From Enterobacteria phage CL707: a stretch of 5,055 nucleotides of DNA. The DNA lies in sequence record EF120459.1; one strand, 5' to 3'. Positions within the stretch are counted from its first letter, which is position 1. Every line of letters begins with the position of its first letter. Below the pieces are notes generated by a model. The model ran no database searches, was not told the DNA's origin, and saw nothing but the letters and a program-made list of their open reading frames with translations. A program made the position numbers and the translations under genes. Positions 1,349 to 1,811 of this stretch are shown one piece after another.

Positions 1349-1378
1349 TGCCAAAAATAAAGGCCGACTATGCGGCCT
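1349..1378 (-). terminator. Intrinsic terminator downstream of the 147-aa ORF
   Basis: On the minus strand the stem AGGCCG/CGGCCT (plus 1361..1366 and 1373..1378, loop 1367..1372) is followed by UUAUUUUUGG (plus 1351..1360). The hairpin overlaps the TAG stop at 1368..1370. Confidence 0.55.
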
Positions 1379-1811
1379 CAACCAAATCAGAAAATGAACT
1401 TCTCCACATGTGGCCGCCTGATAAACCAAGTTGCTCAGCAAGAGAAGCCATCGCCTCAAGCTTGGTATTGCCGAATCCAGCAGGAGATTCCTGTAAATCA
1501 ACAAAATTATGAGCGTGTGCACACCAAACGTTTCCATCTAACTCGATTGTCACGCCAACGACCTCTGCATATTTATCAGCGTCATCATCATTGCAATTCC
1601 ATTTGCTAGCCAGCTCATTAACGCGCTCTTTGTTGGCACCAAGAGCCATGGACTCAACCAGAATGTCCCATGCAGTTTTACGGCTGCTAACATCTAATGG
1701 CCATGAGCAAACCGCTAAATCAGAATCACGAATATCAATAATTGCATCTGGTGATGGCTTATAAATAAGATCACCATTTTGATGCAGGTAATACCATCCA
1801 TTAGTACTCAT
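1368..1811 (-). CDS. Hypothetical acidic 147-aa protein in the early-left operon, directly downstream of N where lambda carries ral; function unknown
   Basis: Complete ORF starting MSTNGWYYLHQNGDLIYK. A GAGGTG Shine-Dalgarno sequence lies 4-5 nt upstream of the ATG, inside the 3' end of N, and only 8 bp separate the N stop from this ATG. By hand count it has about 23 Asp/Glu against about 10 Lys/Arg. It is followed by an intrinsic terminator. I do not recognise the protein. Confidence 0.7.
   Translation of the reverse strand: MSTNGWYYLHQNGDLIYKPSPDAIIDIRDSDLAVCSWPLDVSSRKTAWDILVESMALGANKERVNELASKWNCNDDDADKYAEVVGVTIELDGNVWCAHAHNFVDLQESPAGFGNTKLEAMASLAEQLGLSGGHMWRSSFSDLVEAA

Follow-up and report, generated by a model that had tools for sequence, protein, structure and literature searches.

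We analysed a stretch of 5,055 nucleotides from Enterobacteria phage CL707 (EF120459.1; hereafter the window), with emphasis on orf147, a gene for an acidic protein of 147 amino acids that lies directly downstream of the antiterminator gene N. The phage was reportedly sequenced by Degnan et al. in 2007, and the orf147 product is identical to UniProt A4KWU0 from Enterobacteria phage CL707. The window corresponds to the immunity region of a prophage of the lambdoid group that has lambda immunity, and orf147 is a real gene, forming an accessory cassette that fills the ral slot of this prophage, that is, the position of ral in phage lambda. The features of orf147 and its surroundings are the following, from the promoter pL onward.

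2418-2390, minus strand: promoter pL, TTGACA-17-GATACT (promoter scan)
2319-2333, minus strand: nutL boxB hairpin GCCCTGAAGAAGGGC, an inverted repeat within the lambda-homologous pL-N leader
1820-2197, minus strand: antiterminator gene N (Pfam N36, E 2e-26; phrog_271)
1812-1850: left boundary region of the slot
1821-1815, minus strand: Shine-Dalgarno sequence GAGGTGA for orf147, read from the sequence and kept as the left boundary of the slot
1368-1811, minus strand: orf147, encoding the acidic 147-residue protein of an orphan phage family (open reading frame call, homologues, ratio of nonsynonymous to synonymous substitution rates (dN/dS), predicted structure)
1350-1379, minus strand: intrinsic-terminator-like hairpin GAGGCCGcatagtCGGCCTT (1379-1360) followed by TATTTTT (terminator scan)
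1319-1379, minus strand: right boundary of the slot, common to the Nmad5 cassette, the 107-amino-acid cassette and the lambda post-ral region

The pL-N region is 87% identical to that of lambda, and the inverted repeat at 2319-2333 is identified as boxB from the lambda sequence. The N reading frame opens at 2197, and the true start of N is likely at 2146, where the translation has the lambda-type start MDAQTRRRERR. The stop codon of N (TGA, 1822-1820) is separated from the ATG of orf147 (1811-1809) by exactly eight nucleotides (GGTGAGAT), as an earlier interpretation made from the letters alone (the sequence-only reading) had counted. That reading also placed the Shine-Dalgarno sequence inside the N coding sequence, which needs correction: GAGGTGA overlaps only the last two bases of the stop codon, and most of the motif lies in the eight-nucleotide spacer; three nucleotides (GAT, 1814-1812) separate the full motif, and six nucleotides its GAGG core (1821-1818), from the ATG. 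Because this ribosome-binding site overlaps the stop codon of N, ribosomes ending N could reinitiate on orf147.

The promoter scan detected pL as the sole promoter-like site upstream of orf147, and the terminator scan found no terminator-like site between pL and orf147. This layout shows orf147 as a gene predicted to be co-transcribed with N from pL on a terminator-free transcript. Since the first terminator-like element after pL is met only past orf147, N-mediated antitermination should be unneeded, and orf147 would be an immediate-early gene expressed straight from pL, in agreement with the sequence-only reading. The stop codon of orf147 (TAG) sits in the loop of this hairpin. The fold energy of the hairpin (-10.9 to -12.1 kcal/mol) was not better than that of shuffled sequences (z -0.98), and its status as a terminator is therefore based on the pattern match, the T-run and the conservation of the element. 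That orf147 is a real gene, that it occupies the ral slot and that it is coupled to N as an immediate-early gene are points of which we are nearly certain.

Alignment of the window with the corresponding loci designated L001, L002 and L003 and with that of lambda (L072) indicated that the region after N is a slot with fixed boundary sequences and at least four unrelated cassettes, namely orf147, Nmad5, a hypothetical gene of 107 amino acids and the lambda pair orf28-ral; the exchange of unrelated cassettes between fixed boundaries is a new element of the present comparison. Outside the window the slot was located at 4050-4715 in L001, 3985-4395 in L002 and 1528-1900 in lambda. Sister prophages that share N, BstA and cI with the window have, in place of orf147, a gene of the Nmad5 family encoding 207 amino acids (L001), and the slot of another sister prophage (L002) holds the 107-amino-acid gene, the product of which proved unrelated to Ral when it was considered as a possible relative. 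The cassettes of the window, L001 and L002 start right after ...GCAGCAAACCACTTATTTGAGG, comprising the 3' end of N, its stop codon and the start of the Shine-Dalgarno sequence, and end in the same terminator, (G/A)AGGCCGCATAGTCGGCCTTTATTTTTGGCATAA.... The same two boundaries flank orf28-ral of lambda: a remnant of the linker (CCAC-TATTTAAGGTGATATATG) lies ahead of orf28, and the sequence from GGCCTTTATTTTTGGCATAAA onward trails the stop codon of ral with 96% identity. Because orf147 and orf28-ral share these boundaries, the assignment of orf147 to the "ral position" by the sequence-only reading is literally correct at the sequence level.

In lambda and in strain CH4794, the left linker is a retained relic of the 3' end of a foreign N gene, which points to recombination at the linkers of the slot. 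About 680 nucleotides, a segment with sieB and tL1, lie between N and the slot in lambda; with this stretch before it, ral needs antitermination, unlike orf147, which comes directly after N. The slot terminator was found in 1081 of the 5426 complete Escherichia coli genomes and orf147 in 12 of them, mostly avian pathogenic strains. The terminator after ral is reportedly part of the tL2 cluster (Luk and Szybalski 1983). Occupancy of the slot is variable among otherwise near-identical phages, which marks orf147 as an accessory and not a core gene, and the ral region is a recognised hotspot of accessory genes that holds counter-defence genes (bioRxiv 10.1101/2023.04.06.535777).

Against enterobacterial homologues of 74-78% identity, dN was 0.13-0.21 with dS saturated (dN/dS about 0.06), and orf147 is under strong purifying selection and not a chance reading frame. 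The number of relatives was 205 in a word-indexed search of 5.8 billion proteins, 488 in an exhaustive HMMER scan of 1.84 billion cluster representatives and 513 with a profile built from distant members. Most of these proteins have about 145-160 amino acids, and identity stays at 50-60% in phages and prophages of Xanthomonas, Burkholderiaceae, Caulobacter, Negativicutes, Acidobacteriota, Gemmatimonadales and Spirochaetales. The best 120 of the 513 profile matches carry no Pfam domain and no name beyond "hypothetical". Scans of the orf147 protein and 31 relatives against Pfam, PHROGs, NCBIfam and PADLOC gave nothing above noise, and PDB sequences, searched both with the single sequence and with profiles, yielded no hit below E 0.1. 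The profile searches, which the sequence-only reading had proposed as a check, thus yielded no match to a protein of known, unrelated function. From these searches, orf147 is seen to define an orphan family, with over 500 member proteins distributed across bacterial phyla. The literature searched mentions neither the orf147 accessions nor the GWYYLH motif of the family, and the motif is also absent from the supplements of two accessory-gene screens. The orf147 protein is covered by no publication, curated family or solved structure. In one viral contig (L051, 5989-6443) the orf147 homologue is split into open reading frames of 108 and 50 amino acids by an apparent frameshift or sequencing error.

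The remaining features of the window are the following.

1-1318, minus strand: IS10 (ISVsa5) copy, 99.9% identical to an annotated ISVsa5 element
1204-1273, plus strand: RNA-OUT (Rfam, 98.8 bits)
2643-3548, minus strand: BstA abortive-infection gene, 301 amino acids (phrog_6287, E 6e-133; PADLOC BstA, E 1e-105)
3635-4348, minus strand: cI, 98% identical to lambda
4449-4649: cro, 98% identical to lambda
About 4708-5046: cII-type gene, not of lambda

The BstA gene lies between cI and pL, where lambda has rexAB, and a terminator-like hairpin was observed near it at 2632-2611. Similarity to lambda stops at about 4770, just past cro (window 4770-5055), and the cII-type allele is common to L001 and not to lambda, giving a further mosaic boundary. 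On the other side, IS10 is inserted about 50 base pairs past the orf147 stop codon, directly beyond the terminator, and its transposase frame is open up to the edge of the window; this copy differs from the reference copy by a one-base gap near position 8. Because the insertion severs the remaining pL operon from pL, the prophage is probably defective for the delayed-early functions of the left operon.

The acidity of the orf147 protein, estimated by hand in the sequence-only reading, was reproduced exactly: 23 acidic residues (14 Asp, 9 Glu) stand against 10 basic ones (6 Lys, 4 Arg), the run NDDDAD is at residues 74-79, and the computed isoelectric point (pI) of 4.41 is not near neutral, with a net charge of about -13 at pH 7. 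The median pI is 4.8 for close relatives and 5.4, with values up to 9.5, for distant relatives. The AlphaFold2 model based on 121 sequences (predicted local distance difference test, pLDDT, 93.4; predicted template modelling score, pTM, 0.87) predicts a two-lobed, compact alpha/beta protein, in which a beta-hairpin (5-18), a helix, a strand (33-39) and three helices (44-85) are followed in the C-terminal part by a second hairpin (87-100), a strand (111-114) and two helices. The predicted N lobe (about residues 1-85) holds most of the invariant residues, and the C lobe (about 87-147) has the order strand-strand-strand-helix. Among 113 diverse members, identity was at least 90% at Y8, L9, H10, L15, W37, R44, W48, G58, A59, L67, W71, D77 and A120; these positions are nearly all in the N lobe and mostly aromatic or aliphatic, together with H10, R44 and D77. 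Comparison of the model with PDB and BFVD, which had likewise been proposed, gave no significant neighbour, and the model had no structural match among solved anti-restriction and DNA-mimic proteins.

The two lobes were also observed apart from each other: the C lobe is combined with Cys-rich N-termini in L064 (4563-4958) and L068 (5752-6132), and the N lobe is joined to other, unrelated C-termini in the proteins P0248 and P0262. A C-terminal KTSC domain, of unknown function, occurs in two relatives (P0163 and P0174) and was the sole fusion partner found, since scans of the other long relatives gave no Pfam domain. Over-long reading frames among the homologue calls were considered as fusions and rejected, as they look like N-terminal over-extensions.

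The arrangement behind N recurs in other phages. In the P22-like phage phiv205-1 and in prophages of avian pathogenic E. coli, a copy of 97-99% identity lies behind another N allele, again after a spacer of eight nucleotides, and N-type arginine-rich antiterminators stand directly upstream of the homologue in L003 and in the viral contigs L012, L013, L016 and L018 with gaps of -1 to 14 nucleotides. The conserved synteny after N that the sequence-only reading had suggested looking for is thus present, and at least six further loci of lambdoid or P22-like type have a homologue directly behind an N-type antiterminator. Homologues of other enterobacterial phages have N or kil on one side and, on the other, cIII, a phrog_1376/DUF1351-like gene, Gam/GamL, and Erf or Bet-Exo together with SSB. 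The homologue of the Xanthomonas phages Tenjo and JUN5 has 60% identity; it overlaps the 3' end of a phrog_1376-like gene of 471 amino acids and is followed by recombinase, exonuclease and SSB genes. The coiled-coil phrog_1376/DUF1351-like protein recurs beside homologues elsewhere (L004, 4589-6004; L003, 5736-6587; L071, 7452-8423), in a gene order that differs between the enterobacterial lambdoid phages and the Xanthomonas phages, and a functional link between the two proteins is possible. Within three genes on each side of the homologues of distant phages, we found among others DNA polymerase A, DNA methylases, RecT/ERF/Rad52, YqaJ, RdgC, uracil-DNA glycosylase and dUTPase; DNA methylases are near homologues in several loci. 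The gene immediately upstream encodes the Thoeris inhibitor Tad6 in L035 (5270-5971; PF25188, E 2.4e-36), a pentapeptide-repeat protein in L020 (5400-5912) and the Gabija inhibitor Gad2 in a Pseudoxanthomonas prophage (L007, 7121-7861), the last according to a precomputed PF26128 annotation that the local Pfam scan did not reproduce.

The best-supported reading of these data, to which we give somewhat less than an even chance, is that orf147 is a counter-defence factor. The evidence is circumstantial and comes from position and neighbours: the slot elsewhere holds ral or Nmad5, and Tad6 and Gad2 adjoin homologues in two distant phages, directly upstream, which puts these homologues in anti-defence gene clusters. 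The orf147 protein would act at the very start of infection or induction and shield the phage from the defence of the host or of a competitor, in a role like that of Ral and Nmad5, the alternative occupants of the slot. The invariant N lobe (YYLH...W...R...W...D) may bind a target that hardly varies across bacterial phyla, for which a nucleotide-derived immune signal, a nucleic-acid structure and a universally conserved host protein are candidates, and the mode of action would not be the imitation of DNA by acidic surface charge. The very high conservation across phyla favours such an invariant target over a fast-evolving defence protein. More tentatively, the family may be a structurally new one among counter-defence proteins, the N lobe of which sequesters or modifies a target identical in all bacteria; this would explain the 50-60% identity among phages of Proteobacteria, Negativicutes, Acidobacteriota and Spirochaetales, and the placement as first gene with N would fit such a role. 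Several observations weigh against counter-defence. Tad6 or Gad2 is adjacent in just two of about 50 loci, and most loci belong to the early recombination or DNA-metabolism region (ERF, RecT, Bet, YqaJ, SSB, Gam, DUF1351-like), surroundings that are equally compatible with a role in phage DNA metabolism. Moreover, conservation this high across phyla is unusual for inhibitors of fast-evolving defence proteins, and orf147 is absent from the supplements of two accessory-gene screens and from the literature searched.

The same surroundings are the basis of the main rival explanation, that the protein is an accessory factor of the phage recombination or DNA-end-processing module, which would bind or modulate SSB, the single-strand annealing protein, the DUF1351-like protein or host nucleases and would be no defence inhibitor. 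Nearly all homologues lie in the early region, beside or a little upstream of genes for ERF/RecT/Bet/Rad52, YqaJ or lambda-Exo, SSB, and Gam/GamL or Mu-Gam-like proteins, phrog_1376 (DUF1351-like) repeatedly lies close to the homologue in enterobacterial phages and adjoins it directly in Tenjo and JUN5 although the homologue there has only 60% identity, and the high conservation suits a conserved partner in DNA metabolism. We nevertheless consider this explanation unlikely, because orf147 is of sporadic occurrence and phages with the same recombination genes carry unrelated cassettes (ral, Nmad5) in its place, because the neighbouring recombinases come from several unrelated families and so offer no consistent phage partner, and because the synteny is largely the general layout of the early operon of temperate phages. 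A function in conflict between phages or in host takeover (superinfection exclusion, inhibition of a host process, or regulation of lysis and lysogeny), unrelated to host immunity, appears rather improbable. Other small genes of the same part of the pL operon do include kil, cIII and sieB-type functions, and BstA in the same prophage shows investment in inter-phage conflict; however, orf147 would be repressed in the lysogen and, with pL the only promoter detected upstream, could not protect it, its product has no membrane segment and no similarity to kil, cIII or sieB, and conservation across phyla speaks against a lambda-specific regulatory role. The least supported version, and in our judgement a very unlikely one, is the acidic DNA mimic of the Ocr/ArdA type, titrating a type I restriction-modification or bacteriophage exclusion (BREX) system. 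The low pI, the charge of about -13 and the NDDDAD run, the acidity of close relatives, the earliest possible expression and the presence of the type I restriction-modification modulator ral in the slot elsewhere all agree with it. However, the charge density is moderate, distant but clear homologues are non-acidic, acidic positions are conserved only in part while the invariant ones are mostly aromatic or aliphatic, and the predicted compact fold matches no solved DNA mimic. The proposal of counter-defence made in the sequence-only reading is therefore sustained on circumstantial grounds, but its DNA-mimic form, which lacks both acidity throughout the family and resemblance to the fold of known mimics, is not.

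orf147 belongs to a familiar type of locus, that of the early accessory cassettes at the ral hotspot, and is unusually widespread: of the occupants of the slot it has the widest spread beyond enterobacteria, with over 500 relatives across many phyla. The fixed boundaries make the slot a precise place from which candidate counter-defence genes can be harvested. If the protein is a defence inhibitor, its fold, and probably also its mechanism, would be new among anti-defence proteins, and it would be a useful part for the engineering of therapeutic phages. If the recombination explanation is true, it would be an unrecognised conserved partner of phage recombination modules.

Among known systems, Tad6 and Gad2 are related to orf147 as neighbours only (L035 and L007), and the orf147 protein matches neither family. 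Comparison of the C lobe with the HicB N-terminal or double-stranded-RNA-binding-domain-like folds gave scores that were all below the usual significance level; the orf147 protein had no Pfam HicB match, and its N lobe has no counterpart in these folds. T7 Ocr and ArdA share with the orf147 protein its acidity and its expression from the outset of infection; they differ in a charge density well above that of the latter (-13 over 147 amino acids), in that acidity is not family-wide among orf147 homologues, and in fold. Nmad5 (PF18757, in L001) is a protein of 207 amino acids from another family, and homology to it was rejected (hhalign probability 0.4%), but its gene occupies the identical slot, starting 11 nucleotides past the N stop codon and ending in the same terminator hairpin. 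Nmad5 is a predicted DNA-modification factor, and a point mutation in the nmad5 gene of a Dhillonvirus lets that phage escape the Tmn defence (PMC11846954). Finally, Ral of lambda, with 66 amino acids as against 147, has no sequence or profile similarity to the orf147 protein, which was rejected as a homologue of the Ral/Lar restriction-alleviation proteins (hhalign probability 4%, no Pfam Lar_restr_allev match). Nevertheless, ral is, like orf147, a small early accessory gene of the pL operon that is missing from many related phages, and ral with orf28 shares the slot with orf147, both being flanked by CCACT(T)ATTT(G/A)AGGTGAnATATG as left linker and by GGCCTTTATTTTTGGCATAAA... as right boundary.
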